NCBI GenBank assembly: GCA_027050205.1
Contig: JALUCS010000126.1
Coordinates: 5,004-69,003, forward strand
Reading direction: 5' to 3'
DNA length: 64,000 nucleotides
Origin: a candidate division WOR-3 bacterium
Lineage (GTDB): Bacteria > Hydrothermota > Hydrothermia > LBFQ01
The translations under genes were made by a program, and so were the position numbers. Below, one piece after another: positions 5,698 to 47,878 of the stretch (its first letter is position 1; every line of letters starts with the position of its first letter). The notes beneath the pieces are model-generated. The model did no database searches. It saw nothing but the letters and a program-made list of their open reading frames with translations, and was not told where the DNA came from.

Positions 5698-5839
5698 AAC
5701 GAGTCTATTCTAAGGACGTGTCGGTGTAAGGGGGCGGAACCGACGAATACACCCTCCAAACCGCTGATTGTTCCTATAAGATAGAACAATTGCGTACGGC
5801 CGCCCTACGCCGCCCCTATTGCTCCGCTTAAGGAGAGCA

Positions 5840-8194
5840 TCACCTCACTACGACGAACTTGCCCGTTGCCGTCCCCCTCTCCGTCATCACCACTACGAAG
5901 TACAGCCCTTCGGGTAGGTTGGAGATGTTCAGGCTCAACTCCGTCTCCCCTACGCTTATGTTCCTGGTCACCTTCTCCTCCCTTACGAGGTGGCCGGAGG
6001 CCGAGTATATGCGGATGGCCACGTAGTCGGCCGGGTAGGGACTCTCAACGACTAAGGTTATACGCCTGTGCCTGGACTTTGAGTAGGGGTTGGGATAGAC
6101 CTTCGCCACCCTCATCCGTGGGCCTGTAGGCTCCACCTCAAACGGCTCGGCCGTAGCGAGGGCGTAGGCGTCGGGCATTCCGTACCCCGTCAGGTAGTTG
6201 GGCGTCGGATAGCCGGGGAGCTGGGAGGCTGTCTCAAGGAGCTTCCGCCGGAGCTTGGCGACGTCCCACGATGGATGGACCTCAAGGGCGAGGGCGAGGG
6301 CGCCCACCGTCAGGGGCGTGGAGTAGGAGGTCCCGGATACGCTCACGAGGGGGAAGGAGTCGTCCACCGCCACCACCGTGAAGGGGGCAGCCACCTCCGG
6401 CTTCACCCGGCCATCCGCGGAGGGGCCGAAGGCAGACCGGTTGGCCGGGAGCCACCTCCCGGAGACGGAGTCCCATATTACGCCGCTAACCGCCACCATA
6501 TCGTAGGCGTCGGCGGGGGCCGTAAGCGTTGTGTCCCCTACGAGGGGGTCGGGCAGGGGCCTGTTTCCGACGTTCCCCATGGCGGCGACCACCAAAAGGC
6601 CGTACTTGAGGGCCTGGGAGACCGCCCGTGAGGAGACGGCCGTCCGGCCGTCCATCATATCCTTCGTGTATCCGAGGTCCGCCCCGTAGCCCAGGCTGAT
6701 GTTGGCTATCTGCACACCCCGACGCACCGCCCACTCCAACGCTGCTACGAGGAAGTCCTCCTCTATGCGGTTCTCCCACACCACCCCCGTATCCGTACGG
6801 CCCACCTTCTCCGTCTTGGCGAGGTAGTAGGTCGCCCCCGGCGCCACCCCGATCAGCCTCCCCTCAACGTACCCGGCCAGGACGGAGAGGACGCGGGTAC
6901 CGTGGTACCGGCCTATCCCGTACTCCGGGGCCTCCGCAACCGTGTCCCCCCTGGCCCGGAAGACCAACCTATCCCCGAAGAAGGTGGGTTTGTCGCACGA
7001 GGTCCACCCGTAGGTGCCAAGGAGGTTGCCGAGGGTGTCGTACACCTCTATACGGTCGGGGGAGGGTACCGCCACCTCCGTACCGTTGAAGGCCACCTCC
7101 GTGAGCATAGGGGCGGAGGCTACGGGTCTCCCACCGACGAAGGCCGTATCGTTCCTGACGTAGGCCACCTTACCGCCGGCGTATACGGGACGGAAGCCGG
7201 GAAACAGGGGGGTGGTACCGCTGCGGGTCATCATATAGACCGTATCCCCGTCGGAGAAGAGTAGGGTATCCCCCTTTAGGTGCATCCCCCCGAAACCCTC
7301 TACCCTCTTACCCCTCCAGCACTCTATGGAGGATATTGCTCTATCGTAATAGCACAATTTTACGCTGTCCCCAGTGAAGGCCCCCAACGTGAGGGTGTCG
7401 GGTAGGGTGTCTAAGACGGCCATCTGGTAGCCGGTGAAGGTCCTTATGTCCTTTACAGTATCCTCCACCGTATCCACGGTGGCGAGGTGTAGGGTTCCGA
7501 AGCCGGAGGTCCATGCTACGAATATGCTGTCCCCAAGGAGGGCCAGCGAGGGGTTGTACTCGTACCCCATCTGGACGTTCCTAAGGCTCCACGAGCTGTC
7601 CTCGTTCAGGACGTACAGATAGAGGTTCCACGCCCGCGTGTTCGTTCCCTGTAGGGCCTTCTCGTCGGCACCGGAGTAGATGCAGAGGAAGGAGGAGGAC
7701 AGGGGGAGGCAGTCGTAGGAGTGGACGTAGAAGGGTATGGGAACGGGGGGAGGGATCTCCCTGTCCTCCAACATCAGGCGGTCCCCACTGTTGAAGTCCA
7801 TCTGACCGCCCACCTTAACGCCGAAGAGGGCGGGGTTGTTCAGGTCAAAGCCCGTGTCAAATATCCCGACCTTTACCCCCTTGCCGGTTATACCCAGCGA
7901 GTGGAGGGTGTCGGCCCTTACGGCCTCTACCTGCCGTTTGGACTCCCCGTAGGAGTAAGAGGAGATACCAATATTGCTACTGTTAAGCGGAACAATATTC
8001 CCGGAGCGTTTCACCCTGTACGTAAGGACGGGTACCCCCTCCGGGTTGAGGCGGAAGCCCCTCGGACTCTTCCCTTCCGCGAACCAGTAGAAGGAGAAAC
8101 GTTCGGTTAGGGTGGATTTGGTCCTCATATAGAGGGAGTAGGCCTCCGCGTAAGGTACGTCGCTCGCCCTAAGGGACACCCAAAGAGGTACCAT
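5840..8194 (-). CDS. S8 subtilisin-like serine peptidase with T9SS-like C-terminal domain
   Basis: Catalytic triad motifs FDTG, HGT and GTSYSTP; C-terminal VYPNP...IYSASG...LPEGLYFV. Start moved to ATG 8194, which follows a TATAAT box and removes the overlap with the divergent gene at 8268. Confidence 0.88.
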   Translation of the reverse strand: MVPLWVSLRASDVPYAEAYSLYMRTKSTLTERFSFYWFAEGKSPRGFRLNPEGVPVLTYRVKRSGNIVPLNSSNIGISSYSYGESKRQVEAVRADTLHSLGITGKGVKVGIFDTGFDLNNPALFGVKVGGQMDFNSGDRLMLEDREIPPPVPIPFYVHSYDCLPLSSSFLCIYSGADEKALQGTNTRAWNLYLYVLNEDSSWSLRNVQMGYEYNPSLALLGDSIFVAWTSGFGTLHLATVDTVEDTVKDIRTFTGYQMAVLDTLPDTLTLGAFTGDSVKLCYYDRAISSIECWRGKRVEGFGGMHLKGDTLLFSDGDTVYMMTRSGTTPLFPGFRPVYAGGKVAYVRNDTAFVGGRPVASAPMLTEVAFNGTEVAVPSPDRIEVYDTLGNLLGTYGWTSCDKPTFFGDRLVFRARGDTVAEAPEYGIGRYHGTRVLSVLAGYVEGRLIGVAPGATYYLAKTEKVGRTDTGVVWENRIEEDFLVAALEWAVRRGVQIANISLGYGADLGYTKDMMDGRTAVSSRAVSQALKYGLLVVAAMGNVGNRPLPDPLVGDTTLTAPADAYDMVAVSGVIWDSVSGRWLPANRSAFGPSADGRVKPEVAAPFTVVAVDDSFPLVSVSGTSYSTPLTVGALALALEVHPSWDVAKLRRKLLETASQLPGYPTPNYLTGYGMPDAYALATAEPFEVEPTGPRMRVAKVYPNPYSKSRHRRITLVVESPYPADYVAIRIYSASGHLVREEKVTRNISVGETELSLNISNLPEGLYFVVVMTERGTATGKFVVVR

Positions 8195-8267
8195 AGACGC
8201 TATTATATTTCCGGAGGGTAGTCGGAATACGTCCCCGTCCGTCCCCGCCGTATAATAGTGCGACCGT

Positions 8268-9365
8268 ATGTGGCTACTTCTCCTTACCGCCACCTCTTCC
8301 GACAGCCTCTTGGTGCGCACAATGAAGCCGGAGATAGAGAAGGTTTTCGTTCCGCCTCCGGACTACACCCTGAACCCCGGCGACCGGGTCCTCATAACCG
8401 CGTACTCAAAGGAGGTCTCCATAGTCCAGTACGAGACCTTCGTAGATAACAACGGCCTCCTACCCCTTGAGATATCCCCCCTCTCCCGCCCTACGGCCGT
8501 AAAGGTCAAGGGGCTGACCATAGACTCCGCCCAGAAGGTCCTCCTAAAGGCCTACAGGAGGTTCATCCCCTCCGTCGGGTACGTGTCCCTCCAGCTCATA
8601 GCCCCCTCCAAGTTCTACGTCATACTCCGGGGGAACTTTGACCCCTCCCTCAACGGCTTCCTTCAGGTCAACGGCCTTACGAGGCTCTCCGACCTCGTTT
8701 GGAAGAAGGGGAAGGCCCTCCCTTACTCGGCCTTCAGCCGGGTGGTTGTCAACGGCGATACCTTCAACCTCTGGAGGTACCTCAAGGAGGGGGACATAAG
8801 CCAGAACCCCCTGCTCAAGGCCTACGATACGGTATTTCTGGATAGGACGGACTCCGTCGTCTATGCCGTCGGGGACTTCTCCAAGGGGAACTACTGGACG
8901 ATAGAGTGGGAGCCGGGGGATAGGGTCCACGACCTCGTCCTTAAGCTCCAGCTCGCCCGCCGTCTCTACACCCTGCGGAGGGTCCTCATAAACGGCCGGG
9001 AGGCCAACTTAAACACCCCCCTGCACGTCGGTGATACGGTTAGTTTTGACTTCGCCATTCCCTACGTCCTCGTCCTCGGAGAGGTCGTCAAACCGGGTGG
9101 GGTGGAGTACGCCCCCCACAAGACCGTCCAGGACTACATAATAGAGTCCTACGGTTTCGGCGAGAGGGCCAACCGCTGGAACATACGGGTGAAACATCCG
9201 GGGAGTACGAAGTTGGAGAGGGTCTCCCTGGACTACAGGCCCGGTCCGGGGGACGTAATAATCGTCGGCACTACCCTCCTGACCTTCAGGGACCTCGTCT
9301 TCCTCGGCCCCTCCATCGTATCAACGGCCGTCCTCGTCTATACTACCTTCTTCTCAAAGCGTTGA
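8268..9365 (+). CDS. SLBB-domain polysaccharide export protein (Wza/KpsD-like)
   Basis: DYTLNPGD, NPLLKAYDTV, VLGEVVKPG and PGDVIIV motifs; C-terminal hydrophobic helix. Confidence 0.8.
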   Translation: MWLLLLTATSSDSLLVRTMKPEIEKVFVPPPDYTLNPGDRVLITAYSKEVSIVQYETFVDNNGLLPLEISPLSRPTAVKVKGLTIDSAQKVLLKAYRRFIPSVGYVSLQLIAPSKFYVILRGNFDPSLNGFLQVNGLTRLSDLVWKKGKALPYSAFSRVVVNGDTFNLWRYLKEGDISQNPLLKAYDTVFLDRTDSVVYAVGDFSKGNYWTIEWEPGDRVHDLVLKLQLARRLYTLRRVLINGREANLNTPLHVGDTVSFDFAIPYVLVLGEVVKPGGVEYAPHKTVQDYIIESYGFGERANRWNIRVKHPGSTKLERVSLDYRPGPGDVIIVGTTLLTFRDLVFLGPSIVSTAVLVYTTFFSKR

Positions 9366-10089
9366 AGAGGCGGTGGTAGAGGGGCGTTAGCCTTGAGGGT
9401 AAGGTTAAGGCCACATCCACCAAGGCGTAGAGGGACAGGAGCTTGTGCCTTAATGTCAGGTCGGGGAGCATAACGGGTATCCTCGGTACGTGCATCCTAC
9501 CGAAGGACCTTCGGCAAGAGGGACCGGCGAATCCCCAGCGGTACCCCACCTCTGCGGCTACGGATAGCACCTTCCTATTATATATATTAAAAGGATAGGC
9601 AACGGCGACCACCTCCTCACCGAGGAGGTCCTCAAGGTACTTCTTGGAGTACTCCAACTCGTAGCGGAGTTGCCGGTCGGGTAGGGTGGTCAGGGAACGG
9701 TGGGAGACCGTGTGGGAGCCTACGAGCCAGCCGGAGCGGTGTAGTTCTATTATAGCGGAACGATCCATGTGCCTTACGGGTATACCGAAGTGAGCGTCCC
9801 ACAGGTTCCGCTTGCCAACGAAGTCGGTGATGACGAAGACGGCTCCCTTTACACCCATCTCCTCCATTATCGGGAAGGCCCACCTATGGACCCCCTCAAG
9901 GGCGTCGTCAAAGGTCAGGAGGAAGGCGTCGTAGGGTAGGGGGAAGCGAAGGGCCTTGGGGTCCATAGGGCGAAAGCGGTTGAGGAGGAAGGAGAGGTGC
10001 CTTCGGAAGAACTTCGGGGGTACCCAGTTCCCCGAAAGCCTAAGGTAGGGGGAGACGTCGTGATAGGCGAAGACGAGGGGGTACCTCAC
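9343..10089 (-). CDS. Polysaccharide deacetylase (NodB/CE4)
   Basis: TFDDA, GSHTVSH and AYPF motifs. Confidence 0.88.
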   Translation of the reverse strand: MRYPLVFAYHDVSPYLRLSGNWVPPKFFRRHLSFLLNRFRPMDPKALRFPLPYDAFLLTFDDALEGVHRWAFPIMEEMGVKGAVFVITDFVGKRNLWDAHFGIPVRHMDRSAIIELHRSGWLVGSHTVSHRSLTTLPDRQLRYELEYSKKYLEDLLGEEVVAVAYPFNIYNRKVLSVAAEVGYRWGFAGPSCRRSFGRMHVPRIPVMLPDLTLRHKLLSLYALVDVALTLPSRLTPLYHRLFNALRRR

Positions 10090-10376
10090 GGTGGGTATTG
10101 TACGGTGGAGGGGTTTTGGGCCGGGGTGGTTATTTGTATTATATCAATATTTTCATAATACGACTAATTTTACTGTTTGATGGTATTTTAGTGTTAAATT
10201 GCAACATTTTAATACAAAGATTTATTTATATGTATAGATAATATAGTTTCAATAAATTGTATAATAATTTTACTTTTTGATAGAAAAGTATTCGTACAAC
10301 ACTTAAATATCACACTCCCCACAAACGATTTCCAACCTTTACCCCCACCGGAGGCCGGCCGTATAATATCGCAGGT

Positions 10377-11042
10377 ATGGCCGTATTCAAGAGATTGGCG
10401 GATATCCTTAGGGCGAACATAAACGCCCTGTTGGAGAAGGCGGAGGATCCGGAGAAGATGCTCAAGCTCATCCTATCCGATATGGAGGAGGCCTTGAGGA
10501 AGGCCACGGTGGCGACGGCCCAGGCCGTGGCCAACGAGAGGCGGCTGAAGGCCCAGTACGAGCGGGCGAAGGCCCTCGCCGAGGAGTGGCAGAGGAGGGC
10601 GGAGGAGGCCCTTAAGTCCGGGGACGAGGCCCTCGCTATGAAGGCCCTCAAGAAGAAGGTGGAGTACGAGGAGAAGGCCGCCCGGTACGAGGAGGCTTAC
10701 AGGGAGGCTCACGAGGTCTCCGAGAGGATGAGGGACCAGCTGGAGAAGCTCAAGGCCAAGCTTGAGGAGGCTCGGACGCGGTATACGACCCTCATATCCC
10801 GGAAGAAGGCCGCCGAGGCGCAAAAGACCTTCGCCCAGTACTCCGGTACCTTCGGGGGTGAGGTCTTCTCCAAGTTTGATAAGATGGAGGATAGGATCCT
10901 CCGGGAGGAGGAGGAGGCCAAGGCCCTCGCAGAGCTGTCCGGCGATACCCTTGAGGACGAGTACGACGAGCTTATGAAGGAGAAGAAGGTCCAGAGCGAA
11001 CTTGAGGCCCTCAAGGAGAAGCTCGGCCTGAAGGGAGGGTAG
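10377..11042 (+). CDS. pspA: PspA/IM30 family protein
   Basis: MAVFKRLADILRANINALLEKAEDPEKML N-terminus; long coiled coil; FDKMEDRI. Confidence 0.9.
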   Translation: MAVFKRLADILRANINALLEKAEDPEKMLKLILSDMEEALRKATVATAQAVANERRLKAQYERAKALAEEWQRRAEEALKSGDEALAMKALKKKVEYEEKAARYEEAYREAHEVSERMRDQLEKLKAKLEEARTRYTTLISRKKAAEAQKTFAQYSGTFGGEVFSKFDKMEDRILREEEEAKALAELSGDTLEDEYDELMKEKKVQSELEALKEKLGLKGG

Positions 11043-11047
11043 GGGAG

Positions 11048-11494
11048 ATGAAGGTGAAGATAGTTCCCGGTACGAACGAGAGGCTCCTGCAGGAGGTCAG
11101 GGGGAAGGTCAGGGATTACCTGAAGGACATAGTTGGGGACTTCGTGGAGATGGACGGCATCTTCTCCTTCACCTACGGGAGCGTCACCGTCAACGTTGAG
11201 GTTGTCCCTTGGCACAGTGAGGACGTCTTGGTCAAGGTCTTCTCCTACATAGCAGAGAACGTCTCCCTATCCGAGGAGCTTATGGCCACCCTCCTTGAGA
11301 TGAACGCCCGCTTGCCCCTCGGAGCCTTCGCCCTCGGTATGGACAACAGCGTCGTGTTCCGGTACGCCCTCGCCGGGGCCAACCTGAACTTCAACGAGCT
11401 CCTTGCCGCCGTCTATACCGTCGCGACCGTTGCCGACTCCTACGATGAGTTCGTAAAGGGCTACAGCGCGGGGATGGAGAGGAGGCTGGACTGA
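11048..11494 (+). CDS. YbjN / type III secretion chaperone-like fold protein
   Basis: LLEMNARLPLGAFAL...ADSYDE pattern; 148 aa; SD-like GGAG upstream. Confidence 0.6.
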   Translation: MKVKIVPGTNERLLQEVRGKVRDYLKDIVGDFVEMDGIFSFTYGSVTVNVEVVPWHSEDVLVKVFSYIAENVSLSEELMATLLEMNARLPLGAFALGMDNSVVFRYALAGANLNFNELLAAVYTVATVADSYDEFVKGYSAGMERRLD

Positions 11495-11495
11495 T

Positions 11496-12092
11496 ATGGG
11501 TACCGTATTGCTCCTATTAACCGTAGCAATACTTCTCCTCCTCGTCGGCGTACCCGTATACCTTATATATCTATATAACAACCTCGTCCGGAAGAGGCAG
11601 CTGGTAAAGGAAGCCTGGAGCGGCGTTGAGGTGCAGCTGAAGCGCAGGGCCGACCTCATCCCCTCGTTGGTAGAGGTCGTAAAGGGGTACGCCAAGCACG
11701 AAAAGGAGATATTTGAGAAGATAGCCGAGGCGAGGGCGAAGAGCCTCGGAGTGGGGAGCATCGCCGAGAGGGGTAGGGCGGAGGGGGAGCTAACCCGTGC
11801 CTTGAAGAGCATAATAGCCCTCGCCGAGAAGTACCCGGACCTCAAGGCCAATAAGAACTTCCTTGAGCTGCAGAAGGCCTTAACGGACGTAGAGGACGAG
11901 CTACAGCTCGCCCGCCGATACTACAACGCCACCGTGAGGGAGTACAACACGGCTATACAGATGTTCCCGGCCGTCCTCATAGCCAGGAGTATGGGCTTTA
12001 CGCCGGAGGAGTACTTTGACCTTGACGTAGAGGCCTTCAGGAGCGGGGAGGACGCCGTTCAGCAGCGGAGGAGGCCGAAGATAGAGTTCTGA
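11496..12092 (+). CDS. lemA: LemA family protein
   Basis: N-terminal TM; YNNLV, QLKRRADLIPSLV, YPDLKA and ARRYYN motifs. Confidence 0.93.
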   Translation: MGTVLLLLTVAILLLLVGVPVYLIYLYNNLVRKRQLVKEAWSGVEVQLKRRADLIPSLVEVVKGYAKHEKEIFEKIAEARAKSLGVGSIAERGRAEGELTRALKSIIALAEKYPDLKANKNFLELQKALTDVEDELQLARRYYNATVREYNTAIQMFPAVLIARSMGFTPEEYFDLDVEAFRSGEDAVQQRRRPKIEF

Positions 12093-12097
12093 AACGG

Positions 12098-12125
12098 GTT
12101 GCACATAAGGTATCTTATGTTAACT
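12098..12125 (+). other. XerCD dif-like chromosome dimer resolution site
   Basis: GTTGCACATAA-GGTATC-TTATGTTAACT versus E. coli dif GGTGCGCATAA-TGTATA-TTATGTTAAAT (11-6-11 layout; XerD arm 10/11, XerC arm 9/11). Intergenic; KOPS polarity inverts across it. Confidence 0.88.
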
Positions 12126-12134
12126 AACCTTTCA

Positions 12135-12173
12135 GGGAGGGACGGGGGCGGTCAAGAGACCTCTGCCCCTCCC
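12135..12173 (+). terminator. GC-rich hairpin downstream of lemA and dif (possible terminator)
   Basis: GGGAGGG...GGTC-AAGA-GACC...CCCTCCC inverted repeat; no U-tract. Confidence 0.3.
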
Positions 12174-12880
12174 TCCATCTACCGTTGGCATCAAACTTTC
12201 CGCAATCGCTCCGGCCCCTATTGTTCCGCTTTACAGAATCTACAACCCCCGACCCCGATTTAGCGAAGGGTTGGTCGCCCTGTCCCCTACCCTAACGCCG
12301 TTACCTATATGCCGTTTTAGGTACGTCTCCCGGACCCGTGGGGTTCCTAAGGTTCTACGGATTCGTAGATGAGAATACCGGTGCAGTCTTAGATCCAACG
12401 TAACAGTCCTTGATGCGAATAAATCGCCCGTTGGAGGGCCGGGAAGTAATACCGTAGGGTTCAAACCTCGCCCAACCGCACTTTTATTCGTAGTACCCTA
12501 CCCTAATTCAGAAACCTCCATCCAACGCCGTCGGGGAACATCCCCAAACTCCACGGGGCCGGCTTTCGTCAAGCATCAAGTTCCATACGACATAGCCCGA
12601 ATCTTATCGGGGAAACCGGCAACAACACCCATGGGACCGCCCGCCGTTTGATAGGGACTCCTATTCGTCGGTTCCTACTTTGATCAAACTGGGATAACCC
12701 AAGGGCGACTTCGGGGACGTCGTCTGTTCCCTTACGTACCGCTTAAGCGGATCTATGTGTTATTGATACGCTAAACCGGAACAATAATCACTCCGGCGAA
12801 ATGGTTTCCGTTGGATCAAGTATTGCTCCTATTAAATAGAACAATACCCAAGACGCCGCCCTCCGTATAATCAACCCGCT

Positions 12881-14122
12881 GTGAGGGGCTTCGTACTCTA
12901 CCTTATACCCGTCCTCGCACTCCTATACTCCCTCTCCCTACCCCCCGTAGGCCAGCACGACCATTCCCTCCTCCTGATACACCTGCAGGCCCTCGGCCTC
13001 CTGAAGTACTCCTCCCATCCCCCTACCCTACCCATTTTAGTTAGGGCGGTCTACGAAACCTTAGGGGCGGATTACCAGGTGGTTAGGCTCCTCGCCATAC
13101 TCTCCGCCTCCCTCCTCCCCCTTTCGGCCCTCCTCATAGGTAGTCGTCTCGGTAAGGGCGTAGGGCTGTGGGCCTACCTCCTGGCTCTAACGAGTCCCCT
13201 CTTCCTCATCTACGGAAAGGCTCCTCTGTACGCCCTCTTCGGTTTCTCCTTCGGTGCCTTCGCTCTCGCCCTCCATACGAGCGGGAGGCCTCTCCTGGCC
13301 AACCTCATATCTGCCGTCGCCCTAATCCTGGACTGGACCTCCATCCCCCTCGTCCTCCCCGTCCTCTACGATACCCTCAAAAGGCGAAGGCCTCTCCTCC
13401 TACTCTACCTCCCCACCCTCCCCATATACGCCCTGTGGGTGGCAGACTTCTCAACAGTAGCCGGCGGGGAGTTCTCCCAGAGGCTACCGTCCCCCCAATC
13501 CCTCCTCCTGTTGGTGCCGGTGGTGGCGTTAAGATTGCTCCTATTTACCGGACCTATAACCCTCCTCGGCATCCTCCACCTCTCCATCCGCCGTACGAGG
13601 CTACCCCGCTTCCTCCTCCGGTACCTCTACCTACAGCTCGCCTTCGTACTCCTATGGGCGAACTTTTACGTTTATCATACCCCCTACCTCTTCAACCTCC
13701 TCCCCCTTTTGGCCGTAGCCGGGGCGTTGGGAGTTGTAAGGATGGGCGTTAGGCTCAAGGCTTCGCTATTAACCCTTTCCATCATCTACTCCGCTGCTCT
13801 CACCTTCCTCCTCCTCTATCCCTACAGGACGTTCGCCGCCTCGGATGTGGGTTGTATATTACTACGCTTAAGCGAATCAAAAGCGGGGGCGAGGTACGTC
13901 CTCCCCGAAGGCGGCCGACCCCCGAAGTCCCTCAAACTCCTCCTCACCCTCCTACCCCCCGACGACTCCTCCCCTATAACCGTATCCTTCGGACCGAAAG
14001 GGAGACGCCCCATCGTGTTGTACGGCGATACCGTATCAATAACCGGCTACGGTACGGTCAGGTGCCGAGGGGATACGGGACGGATAGACCGACTATTACT
14101 CCGCTTAAAAGGAATTAAGTAG
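12881..14122 (+). CDS. Multi-pass membrane protein, GT-C (ArnT/PMT-like) glycosyltransferase candidate
   Basis: About 11 hydrophobic segments; HPP motif in the first loop; VRLLAIL; YLFNLLPLLAV. Confidence 0.55.
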   Translation: MRGFVLYLIPVLALLYSLSLPPVGQHDHSLLLIHLQALGLLKYSSHPPTLPILVRAVYETLGADYQVVRLLAILSASLLPLSALLIGSRLGKGVGLWAYLLALTSPLFLIYGKAPLYALFGFSFGAFALALHTSGRPLLANLISAVALILDWTSIPLVLPVLYDTLKRRRPLLLLYLPTLPIYALWVADFSTVAGGEFSQRLPSPQSLLLLVPVVALRLLLFTGPITLLGILHLSIRRTRLPRFLLRYLYLQLAFVLLWANFYVYHTPYLFNLLPLLAVAGALGVVRMGVRLKASLLTLSIIYSAALTFLLLYPYRTFAASDVGCILLRLSESKAGARYVLPEGGRPPKSLKLLLTLLPPDDSSPITVSFGPKGRRPIVLYGDTVSITGYGTVRCRGDTGRIDRLLLRLKGIK

Positions 14123-14410: not shown

Positions 14411-17131
14411 ATGGCCAAAAAGACGGTGTACTTCTTCGGCAACGGTGTAGCCGAAGGCCACGGTCTCGGAAAGGACCTCCTCGGAGGTAAGGGCCACGGT
14501 CTGCACGAGATGACCCACGCCGGCCTGCCCGTTCCCCCCGGCTTCACGATAACGACGGAGGTATGCCGGTACTACTACGCTCATAACAGGCAGTTCCCTC
14601 CCGGCCTGAAGGATGAGGTCCTCCAGAACCTGAAGAGGGTTGAGGAGGCCAAGGGGCAGAAGTTCGGCGACCCCCACAACCCCCTGCTGGTCTCCGTCCG
14701 CTCCGGCGCCCCCGTCTCCATGCCCGGAATGATGGACACCATCCTGAACCTCGGCCTGAACGACGAGACGGTGAAGGGCCTCGCCGAGATGGCCAACGAG
14801 AGGTTCGCCTACGACTCCTACAGGCGATTCCTCCAGATGTTCGGCAAGGTCGTCCTCAAGATAGACGATAAGCTCTTTGACAGGGAGCTGGAGGCCGTAA
14901 AGGAGAGGAAGGCGAAGGAGTTGGGTAAAAGTGCGAAGGAGGTTAAGGACACCGACCTGACGGCCGAGGACTGGAAGGAGGTCGTGGAGAGGTTCAAGGA
15001 GGTCATAAGGAAGGAGACCGGATCAGACTTCCCGCAGGACCCCTACCAGCAGCTCTGGATGGCCATAAAGGCCGTCTTTGACTCCTGGAACAACCCAAGA
15101 GCCATAGAGTACCGGAGGATTGAGGGGATACCCGACGACCTCGGAACGGCCTGCAACGTCGTGGCCATGGTCTTCGGCAACCTCGGGGACGACAGCGGTA
15201 CGGGGGTGATGTTTACGAGGGACCCCAACACCGGCGAGAAGCGGGTCTACGGTGAGTTCCTCCCTAATGCCCAGGGTGAGGACATCGTGGCGGGTATCCG
15301 TACCCCCATGCCCCTTTCCAAGAGGGACAAGAAGGACCCCAACCAACTTTCCCTTGAGGAGTGGGACCCCAACGTCTATAAGGAACTCCTTGAGCTGGCC
15401 GATAAGCTGGAGAGGTACTACAAGGACATGCAGGACATAGAGTTCACCATAGAGCGGAAGAAGGTGTGGCTCCTCCAGACCCGCCGCGGTAAACGCACAC
15501 CCAAGGCCGAGGTGAAGATAGCCGTTGATATGGCCAAGGAGGGCCTCATAACCAGGGAAGAGGCCATAATGCGGGTGGACCCCTACAGGTTTGAGCAGGT
15601 CCTCCACCCCTACATAGACGAGAAGGTCGTTGAAAAGCAACTCGGATACGTCCCCGTCATAGCCCATGGGATAGCCGCCTCCCCCGGTGCGGCGACCGGT
15701 AAGGTGGTCTTCCACCCGGACAAGGCTCACGAGATGGCGGAGAAGGGTGAGAAGGTAATACTGGTGAGGGTTGAGACCTCCCCGGAGGACATCAAGGGTA
15801 TGGCCGCAGCCGTCGGTATCCTGACGGGGAGGGGTGGCGCCCTGTCCCACGCCGCCGTGGTGGCCAGGGGTATGGGTAAGCCCGCCGTCGTCGGCGCCGA
15901 GATGTTGGACATCTACGAGGACGAGGGCTACTTCAAGGTGAGCGGAGAACACACCTACAACGGCAAAGAGGTTGTGGTGCGCGAGGGGGACGTCATCACC
16001 ATAGACGGCGGTAGCGGTAAGGTCTATCTGGGGGATATACCGAAGGTAGAGCCGGAGCTGGGCGGTGAGGTGGCGGAGCTGCTTGAGTGGGCGGACGAGG
16101 TCCGGAAGGGCAAGCTCGGTGTGAGGGCCAACGCCGACACGCCAGAGGACGCCCGCAGGGCGAGGGAGTTCGGGGCGGAGGGTATAGGTCTCGCCCGCAC
16201 GGAGCATATGTTCTTCGCCGAGGACAGGATAAGGGACTTCCGTACGATGATCCTCTTCGCCTCAAGGAAGGGGGAGAGGTACGAGGAGGCCAAGGAGAGG
16301 ATAAAGTCCTATCAGGCTGAAGACTTCTACGGCCTCTTGAAGGAGATGGACGACCTCCCGGTGATAATCCGCCTCTTAGATCCTCCCCTCCACGAGTTCC
16401 TCCCCAAGACGGAGGACCAGATTAAAGAGACGGCGGAGTACGCCGGGGTATCCGAGGAGGAGATCAGGAGGTTAGTTGAGGCCACCCACGAGGCCAACCC
16501 GATGCTAGGACACAGGGGCGTTAGGCTGGCCATCACCTACCCCGACATCTACGCCATGCAGACGGAGGCCGTGGCCGAGGCCTACCTGAAGCTCAAAAAC
16601 GAGGGCTATAACCCCAAACCCAAGATAATGCTCCCCTTAGTGGCCTTCGCCTCGGAGATGGAGAAGGTGCGGGAGATAGTGGAAGGGGTGCTTGAGAGGT
16701 ACGGCCTGAAGGGGAAGGTTGAGGTCGGGACGATGATTGAGCTGCCAAGGGCGGCGGTTAAAGGGGACGAGATAGCCCGCTACGCCGACTTCTTCTCCTT
16801 CGGGACGAACGACCTCACCCAGACGACCCTCGGATTCTCAAGGGACGACGCCGGTAAGTTCCTGCCGGAGTACATAGAGAAGGGCCTCCTTGAGGACGAC
16901 CCCTTCAAGACGGTGGACGACGCCGTGGTGGCCTTGGTGGAGATGGGGACGTCCAAGGGTAAGTGTGAGAAGGACAACCTTGAGGTGGGGGTGTGCGGTG
17001 AGCATGGCGGGGACCCCAAGAGCATACGGAAGTTCTATAAGGCGGGGGTTGATTACGTGAGCGCCTCCCCCTTCAGGGTGCCGGTGGCCCGTCTTGCGGC
17101 CGCCCAGGCCGTACTCGGTGAGAGATGCTGA
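14411..17131 (+). CDS. ppdK: Pyruvate, phosphate dikinase
   Basis: LLGGKG, VSVRSGAPVSMPGMMDT, SHAAVVARG (phospho-His) and GTNDLTQ motifs. Start moved to MAKKTVYFFG at 14411. Confidence 0.96.
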   Translation: MAKKTVYFFGNGVAEGHGLGKDLLGGKGHGLHEMTHAGLPVPPGFTITTEVCRYYYAHNRQFPPGLKDEVLQNLKRVEEAKGQKFGDPHNPLLVSVRSGAPVSMPGMMDTILNLGLNDETVKGLAEMANERFAYDSYRRFLQMFGKVVLKIDDKLFDRELEAVKERKAKELGKSAKEVKDTDLTAEDWKEVVERFKEVIRKETGSDFPQDPYQQLWMAIKAVFDSWNNPRAIEYRRIEGIPDDLGTACNVVAMVFGNLGDDSGTGVMFTRDPNTGEKRVYGEFLPNAQGEDIVAGIRTPMPLSKRDKKDPNQLSLEEWDPNVYKELLELADKLERYYKDMQDIEFTIERKKVWLLQTRRGKRTPKAEVKIAVDMAKEGLITREEAIMRVDPYRFEQVLHPYIDEKVVEKQLGYVPVIAHGIAASPGAATGKVVFHPDKAHEMAEKGEKVILVRVETSPEDIKGMAAAVGILTGRGGALSHAAVVARGMGKPAVVGAEMLDIYEDEGYFKVSGEHTYNGKEVVVREGDVITIDGGSGKVYLGDIPKVEPELGGEVAELLEWADEVRKGKLGVRANADTPEDARRAREFGAEGIGLARTEHMFFAEDRIRDFRTMILFASRKGERYEEAKERIKSYQAEDFYGLLKEMDDLPVIIRLLDPPLHEFLPKTEDQIKETAEYAGVSEEEIRRLVEATHEANPMLGHRGVRLAITYPDIYAMQTEAVAEAYLKLKNEGYNPKPKIMLPLVAFASEMEKVREIVEGVLERYGLKGKVEVGTMIELPRAAVKGDEIARYADFFSFGTNDLTQTTLGFSRDDAGKFLPEYIEKGLLEDDPFKTVDDAVVALVEMGTSKGKCEKDNLEVGVCGEHGGDPKSIRKFYKAGVDYVSASPFRVPVARLAAAQAVLGERC

Positions 17132-18414
17132 TAAGACTGAAGGCCCGCAGGTACCGAAGCCTGCGGTGGGTGGACGTACCTGTGGGCCACTTTAACGTCC
17201 TGATAGGGCCGAACGCCTCCGGTAAGAGCAACTTCCTTGACGTCCTCCTCTTCATAAAGGATATGATAACCTCCGAGGATGGGGTTATGGGGGCGGTGCG
17301 GAGGCGGGCGCCCGACTTCTCCCACCTCGTATGGATGATGGAGGACGTAGGGGAGGGTTTTGAGTTCGTCGTGGAGTACGAGCTGCCGGAGGAGTACAAG
17401 GTGAGAACCAAGGATAAGCGGGGTAAGGAGAGGCTCTACGACAGGATAAAGTACATGCTGAAGGTGGGAACGGGGGAGTACGGCCCCGCTCCCGTCAGGG
17501 AACACCTCTATCTGGTGGATAGCTCCTCCACCGAAGAACCGCCTCCGAAACGGGACTTTTTCCCCCAGACGCTCCCGGACAGGCCCCTTATTGACACTAC
17601 GAAGAAGAAGGTAAGGACGCCGGTAGGACACAGGATAGTGGCCCGGAGGCCGAAGTACGGCCCAGGGGTCTATATGAGGTCGGAGCGGGGTTCCAGACCC
17701 TTCAACATAACCCTTAGCATAAACCCCCGTAAGTCCGTCCTCTCCGTCCTTTTGGAGGACGAGCGGAGGTTCAGGACCTCGCTGTGGTTCAGGAACGTAC
17801 TGAAGAACTCCCTCCTCTTCGTCCATCTAAACGTTGAGAGGATGAGGCGTCCGACCCCACCGAGCGCCCCCACCACCTTCCAGCCCGACGGCTCCAACCT
17901 CCCCACCGTCCTGTTGGACCTGAAGGACAACTACCCCCGGAGGTTTAAGTGGTACGTCTCGCATGTCAGCTCCGCCCTGAAGGACGTTGAGGATATTGAG
18001 ATTCAACGCAGACCGGAGGATAACTTCCTGTACGTCGTCCTCCGCTACAGGTACGGTCTGAAGGCCCCATCGTGGGTACTGTCCGACGGTACCCTCCGGT
18101 TCCTCGCCCTTAGCGTCATCCCCTTCCTCCCACCCCAGAGCCGCATATTCCTCATAGAGGAGCCGGAGAACGGGATACACCCCCGCGCCGTAAGCAGCCT
18201 GTTGGAGGTACTCAAAGGCCCGTCCGACAACCAGATATTCGTAGCCACCCACTCCCCCCTGATACTCCGTCAGATGCAGCCGAAGGACATCCTCGTCTTC
18301 AGGAAAACCGAGGATGGGGCCACGGACATAGTGAGGGGGACGGAGCATCCGGCCCTCCGGAGGTGGAGGGAGGAGGTTCCCCTTGATAAGTTGGTGGTGA
18401 GCGGTATCCTATGA
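17125..18414 (+). CDS. ABC-class AAA ATPase (AAA_21-type, MADS MAD3-like)
   Basis: Walker A GPNASGKS, signature LSDGTLR, Walker B IEEPENGIHP and H-loop ATHSP; overlaps the ppdK stop. Confidence 0.85.
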   Translation: MLIRLKARRYRSLRWVDVPVGHFNVLIGPNASGKSNFLDVLLFIKDMITSEDGVMGAVRRRAPDFSHLVWMMEDVGEGFEFVVEYELPEEYKVRTKDKRGKERLYDRIKYMLKVGTGEYGPAPVREHLYLVDSSSTEEPPPKRDFFPQTLPDRPLIDTTKKKVRTPVGHRIVARRPKYGPGVYMRSERGSRPFNITLSINPRKSVLSVLLEDERRFRTSLWFRNVLKNSLLFVHLNVERMRRPTPPSAPTTFQPDGSNLPTVLLDLKDNYPRRFKWYVSHVSSALKDVEDIEIQRRPEDNFLYVVLRYRYGLKAPSWVLSDGTLRFLALSVIPFLPPQSRIFLIEEPENGIHPRAVSSLLEVLKGPSDNQIFVATHSPLILRQMQPKDILVFRKTEDGATDIVRGTEHPALRRWREEVPLDKLVVSGIL

Positions 18415-19028
18415 GCGAGTACGACGTCGTCATACTCGTGGCGGACTCCCACGCGGAGGTCTTTGTGGACGTCCTGCTTAAGGAGAAGAGGGAGGCGATC
18501 GGTGTTGGCCCCATCAGGTACGAGGTGATCGTCCACTACGAGAGCGATCCGGGGGTATTCAAGAACCCGTACGAGCTTCTACGGGCCTATCAGGGCAGGG
18601 CGAGGAAGGTCCTGGTGATGTTGGACGAGGAGTGGAGCGGTTCCCCGGGTAAGGGGGAGATTGAAAAGCGCATCAAGGAACTGATCCTCAGGAACACCAC
18701 ATGGGGGGCGGAGGACATAGAGGTCGTAGTCCTGTCGCCGGAGATAGAAGTTTGGGCCTGGTACGACACATGGAGGCTCACGTGGGCTTTGGGGGTTGAT
18801 AGGCGGATCGTAGAGGACTGCCGTAAGGAGTACGGGGTGAGGGAGGACGGGAAGCCCGTCAGACCCAAGGAGGCTCTGGAGTGTATATCTAACAACGGAG
18901 GGCCGCCCTACGGTGGAGGTATGTTGAGGCTCATAGCCCAGCGTGTAAGTAGGAGGGTGGCCAAGGCGTGCAGGGACGAGGGGTTCGGGAGGTTCGTTGA
19001 GTTCTTGAGGGCGGTAGGAAAAAGGTAA
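18411..19028 (+). CDS. MAD4-like / DUF4276-type TOPRIM-fold partner protein
   Basis: VVILVAD, VH-x3-DPG, LVMLDEE, PEIEVWAW and KPVRPKEA motifs; ATGA overlap with the ATPase. Confidence 0.6.
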   Translation: MSEYDVVILVADSHAEVFVDVLLKEKREAIGVGPIRYEVIVHYESDPGVFKNPYELLRAYQGRARKVLVMLDEEWSGSPGKGEIEKRIKELILRNTTWGAEDIEVVVLSPEIEVWAWYDTWRLTWALGVDRRIVEDCRKEYGVREDGKPVRPKEALECISNNGGPPYGGGMLRLIAQRVSRRVAKACRDEGFGRFVEFLRAVGKR

Positions 19029-26389: not shown

Positions 26390-26686
26390 TTACCCTATCC
26401 CGTACTTGCTCAGGTAGGCCTTCACGAGGAGGTTGAAGAACTTCGTGTGTTTCCCGTCCATCAGCTTAAGATGCACCAGCTCGTGTACTATCACCTCGTG
26501 GCGGAAGCGGGCGGGTTGCTTGAGTAGGTCGCTGTTTAAGGTGAGCCTTCCCCTCGTTGAGACGCTCGCCCACTTCCGTTTCATCGGCCTCACGTGTATC
26601 TCCTTCAACCTGTCCTCAACCCCTATCCTCCTCGCCCACGTCCAGACTTCGGCGATGAGAATGTCCCGCATTACGTCCTCACTCAT
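26390..26686 (-). CDS. YgjP/DUF45 (M48-like) metallopeptidase domain protein
   Basis: MKRKWAS...VIVHELVHL...HTKFF; sits directly downstream of hsdR, as is typical. Confidence 0.8.
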   Translation of the reverse strand: MSEDVMRDILIAEVWTWARRIGVEDRLKEIHVRPMKRKWASVSTRGRLTLNSDLLKQPARFRHEVIVHELVHLKLMDGKHTKFFNLLVKAYLSKYGIG

Positions 26687-29579
26687 CCGCTATCCTCCTT
26701 AGCAGGTTAAGGATGTCGTTTGCCCATTCAACCCTGTCCTCTATACCTGCCCCTTTGAGGACCTTGTAGAGCCTCCTGCGGAGGCCTCCCTCCTGTCGGG
26801 CGCTCTTACTCCAATAGGGGAACTCCTTCAGGGCCTCGTCTATACCGAGGGCGAGATCTTCGGAGGTATGGGGGTCCAACCCCTTGTGGAGCCGCAGCCA
26901 CCACTTTACGGCGAAGGCACCGTTGGAGAGGTGGGTTTCCCCCATCTGCCTCTGGGCCTCCTTTATCTCCCTTACGAGTTTCTCCAGCTCCTTTAGGGCC
27001 TGCCTGCTGTTTATCTGCCTCTCCTCAAAGGCCTTCCTTATCCTCTCCGCCCTCTCCCCTATGGGTATGAGGAAAGGTTTCTCCTTCCCCTCCTCCGCCA
27101 CCATCCGGGCTATGGTGTTGAGGAGGTTAAACATCCTGACGGTTTCGGGTTTGTGCCTGGCGGTTAGGAGGGACTCAAGGGTTTCGGGGGTTATCTCGTA
27201 GGTCTCTTTAAGGAGGTTTAAGGTTGGGGTACGGGTGTGCCTCTGTACGATTTCGGCTGTCTTTCTAAGGAAGGACTTATCAACATCAACCGAAGGCTCG
27301 TAGGCGCTTCGCAGGATCCTGTACATCTCAACGAGTTTCCTGTAGTCGTCCAAGAAGGGACGGAGGAAGGGGTCGGGGGATAGCACCTCGTAGAGTTCTT
27401 GGAGTTCGCGAAAGAACCTATAAAACTCCTCCCTCAAGGGTTTATCCTTGAAGCGTTGGAGGATGGCTTCGGCGACCCTGTCCGGTTCGTTGGGATCAAA
27501 TACGGGTAGGTACTCCTCCCTCCCCACTCTTATGAGCTCCTCAAAGCGCTCCTTCAGGACGTCTATTCCCTCAACTATTCCCTTGATGTCCTCCGAGTCA
27601 AAGGCGAGGGCCTTTTCAAGGTTGTCAAATATGCCTACGAAGTCAATTATGAGTCCGTTGGTCTTCCTACGTCCGTCTTCGTCCTCGTACGGGCGATTCA
27701 CTCTGGCAATGGCTTGGAGGAGGACGTGGTCCCGCATGGGTTTGTCAAGGTACATAGCGTAAAGGATCGGGGCGTCGTATCCGGTCAGGAGCTTCTCCGT
27801 GACTATGAGAATCTTGGGGTTTTCGTCGGGCTTCCTGAAGGCCTTCCTTACGCGGGTCTCCTCCTCGTCGCTTAGGTGGTAGCGTTTCAGATGGGGAGGG
27901 TCGTTGTGGTTCCGGCTTATTACGACCTCGCTGTATTCAGGGGGCAGGTACCTGTCCAAAGCCTCCTTGTAGAGGACGCACGCCTCCCTATCCACGGCCA
28001 CAAGGAAGGCCTTGTACCCCATAGGTTCAACGTTGCTTTTAAAGTGTTCGGCCACAAAACGGGCGATCTTCTCAACTCTTTCGCTGTTTTTGAGCATATT
28101 TTTGAGATTCACCGCCCTATCCAACACCCGGTTTATCTCCTCTATATCGGCCACACCCTCAAGGGCGGCGGCCTTCCAGAACTCCCTCTCCATCGTCTCC
28201 CTATCCACGACCAACTCGTTTGGGGCCATCTGGTAATGGAGGGGAACGGTGGTCCCATCCTCTATAGACTCCTTTATGGAGTACTTGTCCAGATAACCCC
28301 TCGGAGGGTCATCCACACCGAAGACCTTGAAGGTACCCTTCCCCCTACTCGTCTTATCTATCGGTGTCCCGGTGAAACCTATAAACGTGGCGTTGGGAAG
28401 CGCCCCCATAAGGTAGTTTCCGAGGTCCCCGCCCGTTGATCTGTGAGCCTCGTCTATCAGGACGATGATGTTGGAGCGGGTGTTCAGGTTGGCGTCCGCT
28501 TTATCAAACTTATGGATCATAGAGACTATCAGGCCGCGGGTGTCCCTCTTGAGGAGTTCCCGGAGGTGTCTTTTGCTCTTGGCAACGTGGAGGTTTCCGA
28601 AACCGACGGCCTCAAGGTTCTGGAAGAGCTGCTGCTGGAGTTCGTTCCTGTCCACTATCATAAGGACGGTGGGGTTCTTGAAGCGGGGGTCCTCCAGTAT
28701 AAGTCTGGCGGCGGTTATCATCGTGTAGGTCTTCCCGGAACCCTGTGTGTGCCATACGAGTCCCCTACGCTTTCCGCGGTCACTGGCCCTCCCTACGACC
28801 TTTCCGACGGCCCTCATCTGATGGGGACGGAGGACCACCTTGGACAGCTCCCCGTCCCTCCGGACGAAGAGGATGTACCTGCCGAGGATTTCAAGGATCC
28901 TCCTCCGGGATACGAAGGCCTTGACGAGGGTCTCAAAGTCCCCGGCCTGCTCGTCTCTGTAATTGAACAGGGCTTTACGGGAGAGGTTCCACGTGGGGCC
29001 GTAGAGGAAGCGGTGGAAGTCTGTAATTACGTATATTTGGCTCTGTACCAGAAGCTCCGGAGCCTCGTCGTGGTACCGTCTTATCTGCTCATGGGCCTCC
29101 CCTATGCCCTCAACCTTCGTAGGGGCCTTGGCCTCAAGGACCACAACGGGGATGCCGTTGACGAGGAAGACGATGTCAAGGCGAACGGTGGAGGTTCCAC
29201 TGACGAAGCGGAACTCCTCGGTTATGTGGAATACGTTGTTCTCCGGAACCTCAAAGTCAATAAGGCGTACGTTCTTCTCCCTTTTCTCCTCCTCAACGAA
29301 TACGGTCTTAAGGCCCCTCAGGTACTCCCACACCTCGTAATTTCCTTCAACGTTGGGCCTCACCCTTACAAGTCTGTCTATCACCTCTTCGGCCTTCGTC
29401 CGGTTTACTATGGCAGTGGGGTTGAGTTTCTGAAGTTGCTCTATCAGAATGCTCCGCAGTACGGGACTACTCTCCCCTCCCCGTAGCCTAAGGGCCTCAT
29501 CCGGAGGGAGGTACCTCCAACCCACCTCCTGGGTGTGGCGGATTATAGGTTCCTGAACGGTCTGGCGTTCGGAGAACAT
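26679..29579 (-). CDS. hsdR: Type I restriction endonuclease subunit R
   Basis: DIVFLVNGIPVVVLEAK nuclease motif; HTQGSGKT, DEAH, GFTGTP and QAIARVNR helicase motifs. Confidence 0.95.
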   Translation of the reverse strand: MFSERQTVQEPIIRHTQEVGWRYLPPDEALRLRGGESSPVLRSILIEQLQKLNPTAIVNRTKAEEVIDRLVRVRPNVEGNYEVWEYLRGLKTVFVEEEKREKNVRLIDFEVPENNVFHITEEFRFVSGTSTVRLDIVFLVNGIPVVVLEAKAPTKVEGIGEAHEQIRRYHDEAPELLVQSQIYVITDFHRFLYGPTWNLSRKALFNYRDEQAGDFETLVKAFVSRRRILEILGRYILFVRRDGELSKVVLRPHQMRAVGKVVGRASDRGKRRGLVWHTQGSGKTYTMITAARLILEDPRFKNPTVLMIVDRNELQQQLFQNLEAVGFGNLHVAKSKRHLRELLKRDTRGLIVSMIHKFDKADANLNTRSNIIVLIDEAHRSTGGDLGNYLMGALPNATFIGFTGTPIDKTSRGKGTFKVFGVDDPPRGYLDKYSIKESIEDGTTVPLHYQMAPNELVVDRETMEREFWKAAALEGVADIEEINRVLDRAVNLKNMLKNSERVEKIARFVAEHFKSNVEPMGYKAFLVAVDREACVLYKEALDRYLPPEYSEVVISRNHNDPPHLKRYHLSDEEETRVRKAFRKPDENPKILIVTEKLLTGYDAPILYAMYLDKPMRDHVLLQAIARVNRPYEDEDGRRKTNGLIIDFVGIFDNLEKALAFDSEDIKGIVEGIDVLKERFEELIRVGREEYLPVFDPNEPDRVAEAILQRFKDKPLREEFYRFFRELQELYEVLSPDPFLRPFLDDYRKLVEMYRILRSAYEPSVDVDKSFLRKTAEIVQRHTRTPTLNLLKETYEITPETLESLLTARHKPETVRMFNLLNTIARMVAEEGKEKPFLIPIGERAERIRKAFEERQINSRQALKELEKLVREIKEAQRQMGETHLSNGAFAVKWWLRLHKGLDPHTSEDLALGIDEALKEFPYWSKSARQEGGLRRRLYKVLKGAGIEDRVEWANDILNLLRRIADE

Positions 29580-35597: not shown

Positions 35598-35623
35598 TAT
35601 TGCTCCGGTATACCGGAGCAATA
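35598..35623. repeat. Perfect 26-bp copy of the dif-associated palindrome
   Basis: TATTGCTCCGGTATACCGGAGCAATA. Confidence 0.85.
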
Positions 35624-47612: not shown

Positions 47613-47659
47613 AGTGGGATTGTAAGGGGGCTTCGGAGCGAAGCGAGAATGCGGACCCT

Positions 47660-47683
47660 ATTGCTCCGCTATAATAGAGCAAT
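47660..47683. repeat. Copy of the dif-associated palindrome
   Basis: ATTGCTC-CGCTATAATA-GAGCAAT; a degenerate second copy at 47691-47714. Confidence 0.8.
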
Positions 47684-47878
47684 TTTTAATTTTAATCCGT
47701 ATTACCGAAATAATACCAAAATTCGTACAGAGCCACATAAGGGGTTGGAATCCATTCCGGCAGAAGACTCGGATGCTCCCTATGGCCTTTATTCTGCACC
47801 AATGACTCCTCCGTTGCACTTCCCTTTGCAACCGGTGGAGGTTTTCAACTTTACCCCCCATAAAATACCCACGATGGG

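Follow-up and report, generated by a model that had tools for sequence, protein, structure and literature searches.

The 64,000-base window analysed here (bases 5004-69003 of contig C126 of a candidate division WOR-3 bacterium) contains a dif site that is surrounded by a dense array of a 26-bp palindrome. The best-supported reading of this arrangement, and one that we hold on balance to be correct, is a dif-centred array of candidate binding sites for a dimeric, sequence-specific protein; we infer protein binding, the dimeric state of the binder and every function discussed below. The element is outside every terminus system tested, and it probably represents a docking array for a protein that handles the terminus. 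An earlier reading of the window alone (the original prediction) had proposed a terminus-organising, matS-like system. The dif-centred array stands, but the likeness to matS is one of analogy only, and the array spans ~8 kb. The source genome (G000) is a draft of 135 contigs and 2,052,029 bases with a completeness of 93.5%; in the numbering of the window, which is used throughout, C126 extends from -5003 to 67502. Judged from a type IX secretion system (T9SS) sorting domain and from DUF4476, the source organisms look like members of the Fibrobacteres-Chlorobi-Bacteroidetes (FCB) group. The comparisons cover 19 genomes of the order, designated by G numbers, and other families of the class that were sampled separately.

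The refined consensus of the palindrome is TATTGYTCY-N2-TWWA-N2-RGARCAATA. The outer 7 bp on each side are strongly conserved, the T-WW-A centre is conserved as well, and the inner positions occur in two flavours, CCGNT or CTATT, either of which is found in either half. With the loose pattern ATTGYTC-N10-GARCAAT and up to 3 mismatches, the window contains 13 matches compared with 3.51 expected, a number attained by none of 100 dinucleotide shuffles of the window; two of the 13, at 33347 and 58988, are chance-like. At up to 2 mismatches there are 12 matches in the whole assembly, of which 10 are located on C126, and the remaining two are one duplicated sequence (on C44 and C45) without the TWWA centre; 8 of the 12 fall inside a single span of 7.8 kb (binomial P ~2e-17). 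A symmetrised 26-bp scoring matrix was trained on 11 sites of the window, which are circular as evidence because the matrix was built from them, whereas the site at 12219 was outside the training set and yet scored 21.8. In a scan of the whole genome this matrix detected 12 sites with scores of 21.8-38.0, every one of them on C126; no other sequence in the genome scored above 17.7, and no strong site is present in the other ~1.98 Mb of the draft assembly. Ten of these solid sites are located in 5766-13558, an array of ~8 kb around dif, and two are isolated (35598 and 47659, at 23.5 and 35.5 kb from dif; Table 1). To the left of dif the contig ends after 17 kb.

All 11 copies listed in the original prediction were found where it had placed them, and its statement that few copies occur elsewhere in the window proved accurate, as exactly two of those are solid. 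Its estimate of about 14 copies around dif was too high: only the 10 in 5766-13558 are solid. The listed copy at 13858 is marginal, with a score of 14.3 that is within the chance range; among the weaker copies, the one at 12220 is solid, and those at 14017 (10.3), 14095 (9.5) and 12733 (4.2) are chance-like. The clustering itself holds. None of the refuting outcomes named in the original prediction was observed, the comparison with known operators being confined to the site types listed below. The density of strong sites along the genome is far from uniform, with 10 of the 12 within 7.8 kb around dif.

Table 1. Palindrome sites, dif and other features discussed in the text (window numbering unless a locus is given; scores are those of the 26-bp matrix)
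Feature	Position	Strand	Context	Score	Congeners and remarks
Palindrome site	5766..5791	.	intergenic, 69 bp upstream of DUF4476 gene start	27.9	orthologues: G002 30.0, G004 21.7
Palindrome site	5817..5842	.	intergenic, overlaps subtilase stop codon, 51 bp from 5766	27.0	sites at matching place: G002 25.1, G004 18.7
Palindrome site	7334..7359	.	within S8 subtilase gene	22.9	weak in G006 (16.4); absent from G002, G004
Palindrome site	7972..7997	.	within S8 subtilase gene	35.4	orthologues: G002 28.7, G004 33.7; none in G006
Palindrome site	9740..9765	.	within polysaccharide deacetylase gene	23.4	orthologous positions in G002, G004, G006 score just 4.8-6.9
Palindrome site	11506..11531	.	lemA codons 4-12	35.4	kept: G002 35.6, G004 23.3, G006 36.0, also G005
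Palindrome site	12219..12244	.	non-coding, 94 bp right of dif, one strong half	21.8	not conserved in G002 or G004
Palindrome site	12761..12786	.	non-coding, upstream of 413-aa membrane protein gene	32.9	
Palindrome site	12821..12846	.	35 bp upstream of 413-aa membrane protein gene start, 60 bp from 12761	36.8	sites at matching place: G002 29.1, G004 18.8, G006 29.8
Palindrome site	13533..13558	.	within 413-aa membrane protein gene	28.4	G000-specific
Marginal palindrome-like sequence	13857..13882	.		14.3	inside chance range (up to 17.7)
Isolated perfect 26-bp palindrome TATTGCTCCGGTATACCGGAGCAATA	35598..35623	.	48 bp upstream of 135-aa ORF	38.0	near-identical perfect sites in G002, G004, but in different gene context
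Isolated strong palindrome site	47659..47684	.	intergenic, 47 bp upstream of pentapeptide-repeat/SUKH gene	35.1	
dif	12098..12125	+	6 bp past lemA stop		GTTGCACATAA-GGTATC-TTATGTTAACT (XerC arm, 6-bp centre, XerD arm)
Inner convergence zone of KOPS-like GGGNAGGG	9700..13500	.	around dif		4 copies on + within 2.4 kb left of dif, 6 on - within 1.3 kb right
Type I restriction R subunit	26679-29579		defence island		S subunit 31832-33127
DUF3800	29585-30445		defence island		
DarT-Macro fusion	30615-31835		defence island		
HepT/nucleotidyltransferase pair	33177-33831		defence island		
PIN_12 protein	34072-35103		defence island		135-aa ORF also in island
260-aa ParB_N/GmrSD_N-like genes of genus g4	L042:10037-10831; L039:10049-10831; L156:429-1211; L041:4455-5249		directly beside dif		adjoining genes of 332-335 aa

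The position of dif within the array is well defined. A scan of the whole assembly with a generic dif core gave a sole match without mismatches, and this is the dif to which the original prediction had referred. Of the 19 genomes of the order, 18 contain the core, essentially as a single copy, and with 2 mismatches allowed it was recovered from 44 of 46 genomes sampled across the class; its location downstream of lemA is conserved in four aligned genomes. At up to 1 mismatch, the XerC and XerD arms occur on C126 solely at dif. The genome encodes exactly two tyrosine recombinases (XerC/D-type), which fit the two different dif arms, as well as FtsK with a gamma domain. One of these two recombinase genes (Xer-type) has its start overlapped by a 150-aa gene with a bifunctional-nuclease domain (BFN_dom; C70:2413-2865; L044:2283-2735), which suggests that both share an operon.

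In an unbiased scan of 8-mers for a switch of polarity at dif, GGGTAGGG ranked first. The motif GGGNAGGG, which resembles FtsK-orienting polar sequences (KOPS), changes strand at dif on contigs C126, G002:C5, G004:C29 and G007:C4. Over the whole of C126 there are 21 copies on the plus and 1 on the minus strand to the left of dif, and 18 and 40, respectively, to the right; the corresponding counts are 9/7 and 6/30 in G004 and 19/7 and 0/7 in G002, and the switch is weak in G007 (12/8 and 8/14). Within ~2.5 kb, every copy is directed at dif in G000, G002 and G004. Because GGGNAGGG is antisense to most genes on the left of dif and mostly sense on the right, the switch does not arise from gene orientation. 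The six copies within 1.3 kb on the right are assigned to the ~0.75 kb next to dif (12126-12880), a region with no open reading frame (ORF) longer than 74 aa and no Rfam match; it may be a decayed gene in G000, as G002 has a 245-aa minus-strand ORF there. The locus is a dimer-resolution site on which FtsK-orienting motifs converge, and it is probably the replication terminus as well; over 72 kb of C126, the GC skew was uninformative. A reading of the locus as origin or parS region was rejected, since dnaA and one copy of a perfect canonical parS are found on contig C93 and parAB on C123, which also agrees with the statement in the original prediction that the palindrome is not parS.

Several observations indicate that the palindrome is maintained as DNA. 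The seven genes of the array (7,278 bp) contain 4 intragenic matches when 2 mismatches are allowed and 5 when 3 are allowed, compared with means of 0.035 and 0.275 and a maximum of 2 in 1000 shuffles of synonymous codons within genes. None of the 1000 shuffles attained the observed counts; the motif is not explained by coding alone, and the selection on DNA that had been proposed is borne out to that extent. The clearest single case is the site in lemA, where the codons GTA TTG CTC CTA TTA ACC GTA GCA ATA had been read correctly: its A/T-ending codons are kept in G000, G002, G004, G005 and G006, and the codons that follow vary freely. In G001 and G003 the N-terminus of LemA differs and there is no site, so the site sequence is not needed by the LemA protein.

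The two halves of the palindrome behave as separate units. In 39 sites from five genomes, complementarity between mirror positions is no greater than predicted from column composition, with the exception of the central pair (25 complementary versus 17.7 expected, p = 0.013); this is a rough test, as orthologues are included. The inner flavours combine freely between halves, for example at 47659 and 12821. Half-sites that vary independently favour recognition by a protein over formation of a hairpin, and the pattern fits two protein subunits that would each read one half-site.

Within the genus, arrays near dif recur in most species. Counted genome-wide with a pattern that includes the centre, at up to 3 mismatches, G002 contains 10 matches, 7 of them within -6.4 to +2.3 kb of dif (binomial ~3e-15 for 8.8 kb), and G004 contains 11, again with 7 inside this interval. 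In G006, 3 of 7 matches are on the 7-kb contig that carries dif; G005 has 3 matches (2 near dif) and G001 has 2, both next to dif. Reversed-pattern controls in the genus gave 0-2 matches. At ~73% DNA identity, five site positions still score 18.7-36 with the matrix in two or three other species, and other sites have been gained or lost lineage by lineage; gene order across the array is intact in four species. The congener G003 (L031) has an intact dif, no site genome-wide and no other recurrent palindrome near dif; its gene order is the same on the left of dif and different on the right. Repeated in related genomes, as the original prediction had suggested, the scan recovers sites near dif in most congeners but not in G003. 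Few or no sites are left in the subclade of G001, G003 and G005, which gives the impression of a system in decay.

Beyond the genus, the genes around dif change and sites still occur. In genus g2, dif has a GT1 glycosyltransferase, a metallophosphoesterase, a nucleotidyl transferase and a citrate transporter as neighbours, and degenerate sites of the form TTTGTTCTATTATAATAGAAC are found 0.7-0.96 kb from it; G008 has 3 matches genome-wide when 3 mismatches are allowed, and 2 of these are no more than 911 bp from dif. In genus g4, sites are located in a dif neighbourhood made up of GT4, DegT, YchF, AspRS, UvrB and TyrRS genes, and the apparently separate clusters in G017, G014 and G015 are one neighbourhood split over contigs. 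The sites of both genera lie 0.5-5 kb from dif despite the different neighbouring genes. By this comparison, the predicted sites are shown to follow dif, not particular genes, across genera with different neighbours. The motif was not found near dif at any of 19 loci that represent ten further families of the class, which confines the element to this order; a de novo search for other palindromes at the same 19 loci was too insensitive, its positive control being barely recovered. A scan of 185,579 species, possibly not covering near relatives of the source organism, returned 110 stretches, and the 80 listed were single matches in unrelated taxa.

Several points weigh against a dif-centred array of protein-binding sites. 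No binder was found among the candidates, either by neighbourhood or by presence and absence. Over 7 aligned sites of G000, G002, G004 and G006 the DNA identity is 0.71, compared with 0.744 for background 26-mers that are mostly coding; only the lemA site stands out (0.91, within the top 1% of aligned 26-mers). Conservation at synonymous positions is seen in the A/T-ending codons of lemA and not as raised identity over the seven sites; what is conserved is therefore the motif rather than each base. The evidence from g2 and g4 is weaker, because sites there are degenerate, the genomes are AT-rich (26-42% GC around dif) and many matches (2-14) are also found with reversed-pattern controls; a further genus, g3, is without sites near its dif-like sequences. 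In G004 the isolated perfect site and parB share a contig and are 33 kb apart, which means that proximity to the terminus need not apply to every site. All assemblies compared are drafts, and distances were measured within single contigs only. Finally, 6 of the 12 strong sites are located no more than ~120 bp upstream of a start codon, and site pairs are spaced 51-64 bp apart, as operators might be.

These last two features are the core of the strongest rival explanation, in which the palindromes would be operators of an ordinary dimeric repressor, arranged in pairs and controlling mostly envelope-related genes that happen to be near dif in this genus. The promoter-like sites are 5766/5817 in front of the DUF4476 gene, 12761/12821 in front of the membrane protein gene, and 35598 and 47659, which are 47-48 bp before starts. 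A site pair of g4 occupies the divergent promoter shared by GT4 and DegT, and a divergent promoter of G007 contains three sites. Several neighbours are also related to the envelope, namely the subtilase with a T9SS tail, a Wza-like exporter, the deacetylase, PspA and LemA. However, the remaining 6 strong sites are either buried within genes or lack a downstream gene. The genes that hold or adjoin sites are the subtilase, polysaccharide deacetylase, lemA and membrane protein genes in G000 and those for AspRS, UvrB, TyrRS, the GT4 glycosyltransferase and DegT in g4, where sites are located inside the AspRS, UvrB and TyrRS genes. This mixture of functions and the 6 of 12 sites outside promoter positions agree with the original prediction, which had preferred selection on the DNA to promoter regulation. 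Moreover, the genes beside dif differ between genera and the sites stay near dif, and the lack of any strong site in the remaining 2 Mb would be unusual for a regulon. To our knowledge, the motif fits no CIRCE, LexA, Fur/PerR, CRP, NrdR, IscR or BirA site. We consider a purely regulatory explanation unlikely; regulatory and terminus roles may, however, not exclude each other.

It is considerably less probable that the palindromes are sites of recombination or transposition, that is, crossover sites of a recombinase, targets of genomic islands or abutted remnants of transposon ends. In its 12-2-12 layout, with an A/T dinucleotide at the centre, the palindrome is reminiscent of hix, gix and res crossover sites, and its central pair shows a tendency towards self-complementarity. 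In G000 and G002, inserted defence genes adjoin the isolated perfect copies: the copy at 35598 is located at the right edge of a low-GC defence island, and in G002 a DNA methylase island has been inserted beside the matching perfect site, as seen by comparison with G004. IS1-like InsA genes are present in G000, G002 and G004 and not in G001, G003 and G005. Among the 19 genomes of the order, however, a match to the Resolvase family (PF00239) was obtained in G009 alone, which is not the source genome, and the two tyrosine recombinases of G000 are already matched to the two dif arms, with which the palindrome has nothing in common; there are no extra copies of the arms on the contig. No half-sites flank the IS1-like copies, the InsA-like ORF on the parB side is not syntenic in G002 and G004, and the gene order across the array is intact in four species.

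Slightly less probable again are replication-fork barriers of the Ter type, at which a terminator protein would confine fork fusion to the dif region. Sites are found on both sides of dif, and among 25 imperfect sites from three genomes the stronger half is distal to dif in 17 and proximal in 5, with 3 ties. This trend covers only ~11 independent positions (~8 versus 3), among which it is not significant, and the best sites cannot be polar because they are perfectly symmetric. In RTP, the strong half is the blocking face; if the same applied here, forks would be stopped entering the region rather than leaving it. Furthermore, neither Tus (PF05472) nor RTP (PF02334) had a match in G000, the control searches being positive in E. 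coli and B. subtilis, respectively. Hairpins in DNA or RNA (cruciforms, terminators, elements like repetitive extragenic palindromes) or an accident of composition are scarcely credible: perfect copies could form a stem of 10-11 bp and one copy in G004 is located between convergent genes, but compensatory pairing between the arms is no more frequent than expected, the sites have neither a T-run after them nor an Rfam match, copies occur inside genes on either coding strand, and chance is ruled out by the shuffles and by the rest of the genome.

The search for a protein that would bind the array considered families and neighbouring genes alike. MerR_1, Rrf2 and TrmB-like proteins were rejected, as these families also occur in the site-less G003, and RHH_1 is absent from G000 and was found only in G003 (1 of 19 genomes). 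DUF4476 has two sites in its promoter, but it is also encoded in G003 and is missing from the site-bearing G007, G008, G013 and G018. G006 bears sites, but the 413-aa membrane protein was not found in it, and no relative of the 135-aa ORF that adjoins the perfect site is present next to the site of G006. The metallophosphoesterase and GT1 neighbours of dif in g2 are not shared across genera, nor are the ParB_N/GmrSD_N-like protein and SMC_N-like ATPase of g4. Weak matrix matches elsewhere in G000 include none in promoters of DNA-binding genes. An SMC hinge family was not found in G000; this says little, since the search also misses 4 of 14 control genomes.

Two loci deserve description in their own right. 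In four genomes of g4, a 260-aa ParB_N/GmrSD_N-like gene that is absent from G000 is located directly beside dif (Table 1); a gene for an SMC_N/AAA-type ATPase adjoins it in G014 and G015 and is found beside dif in G013. The two may be a defence pair or may be related to dif. In G000, an ORF similar to IS1 InsA (zinc ribbon plus helix-turn-helix, 114 aa) overlaps the parB stop codon (C123:5516-5860; L027:2235-2579), and further InsA-like copies (C40:2287-2562 and C31:1380-1664) are followed by InsB-like ORFs. Close relatives within the genus are restricted to G000, G002 and G004. This ORF was rejected as binder, since it is one of three IS1-like copies, is not flanked by palindrome half-sites and does not adjoin parB in G002 or G004, and we treat the copy at parB as a transposon remnant.

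Comparison with known terminus systems reveals partial resemblances. MatP/matS of enterobacteria and vibrios likewise involves a short palindrome that is confined to the terminus, flanks dif and is often intragenic, and MatP binds as a dimer. matS is 13 bp long, with the consensus GTGACRNYGTCAC, and its sites are spread over hundreds of kb, whereas the palindrome described here measures 24-26 bp and ~10 sites are packed into 8 kb. As the original prediction had noted, it is not matS: no GTGAC...GTCAC is present in the sites, and the MatP family (Pfam PF06303) had no match in G000, the control search being positive in E. coli. The segregation delay in Vibrio cholerae is set by how densely matS sites are clustered locally around dif (PMC11564523). 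The XerD/XDS system of Bacillus subtilis, which serves to unload SMC at the terminus, also has extra binding sites in the terminus region apart from dif, and XDS sites keep a chromosome-organising machine away from dif (PMC11894783); in contrast, the palindrome resembles neither dif arm, and C126 carries no additional XerC- or XerD-arm copies. In Thermococcus kodakarensis, a TrmBL2-dependent SMC boundary forms at the sequence surrounding dif and not at dif itself, and the authors propose that prokaryotes generally avoid SMC passage across dif (PMC11840125). That system is archaeal and involves an intergenic region of 1.9 kb, for which no discrete palindrome is described in the available part of the report (PMC11840125), whereas here the motif is spread over genes; TrmB-like matches exist in the genus, but also in the site-less G003. 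The general pattern that emerges is that SMC complexes are kept from crossing dif by MatP, XerD/XDS or TrmBL2 (PMC11840125, PMC11894783). ZapT of Caulobacter crescentus, annotated as a regulator, has ~10 mostly intragenic sites near the terminus, which it links to the divisome; no consensus motif was found for ZapT, and its sites extend over ~0.9 Mb (PMC7188993), unlike the dense 8-kb palindrome array. The single MerR-type gene of the genus is, again, also present in G003.

Two further comparisons concern systems of other kinds. ParB/parS is similar in that copies of a palindrome, some of them intragenic, are packed into a few kb at one landmark as a nucleation array, but the array described here is located at dif and not at the origin, its motif is unrelated to parS, and the genome has its own parS and one ParB elsewhere (a single ParB_N gene, on C123; no second ParB_N protein was found in G000). 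Tus/Ter and RTP/Ter share multiple binding sites on both sides of the terminus, but Ter sites are asymmetric and polar and the palindromes are symmetric.

If the sites form an array bound by a dedicated protein, we propose the following sequence of events. Protein and array would build a local nucleoprotein complex by which the dif region is marked and held. Until the arrival of FtsK, this complex might hold the sister dif regions to each other or to the division site, might act on a loop extruder, or might be a roadblock. FtsK, guided by the convergence of the GGGNAGGG motifs, would then probably clear the region and subsequently activate XerCD at dif. The array would be a functional analogue of MatP/matS, unrelated to it by descent. 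In its full form, this model describes a previously undescribed terminus 'centromere' of an order of uncultivated bacteria, in which a dedicated protein on the 8-kb array over the KOPS convergence zone would hold or position sister dif regions, or block motors, until FtsK and XerCD act. We put this full form forward tentatively, as a possible scheme that is more apt to fail in some part than to hold as a whole. A palindrome array around dif is not described in the open-access literature that was searched.

Some other features of the window were noted. Between the deacetylase gene and pspA there is an AT-rich intergenic island (10100-10330, ~31% GC; 27-28% in four congeners including the site-less G003) that is not alignable across species; it is probably the control region of pspA, without a tie to the palindromes. 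At 17125-19028, 5 kb to the right of dif, an AAA_21/AAA_15 ATPase gene (429 aa) and an overlapping 205-aa ORF without Pfam match look like a two-gene module of defence type. The defence island at 26679-35621 is distinguished by a low GC content at third codon positions (0.23-0.59, compared with ~0.8 in its flanks); its genes are given in Table 1.

Outside enterics, Bacillus and Caulobacter, the marking and management of the terminus are largely uncharted, and each known system uses an unrelated protein. The cis-element described here is unusually clean, being long, specific, absent from the rest of the genome and centred on dif and the KOPS switch. The perfect 26-mer could be used as bait for the partner protein, with the site-less congener as subtraction control, and the natural loss of the whole system in G003 would provide a built-in comparison. 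If the model is true, the array would be the third or fourth independent dif-guarding system after MatP/matS, XerD/XDS and TrmBL2, and if its binder belonged to a new family, it would represent an independent case for the rule that a special protein-DNA structure surrounds dif.

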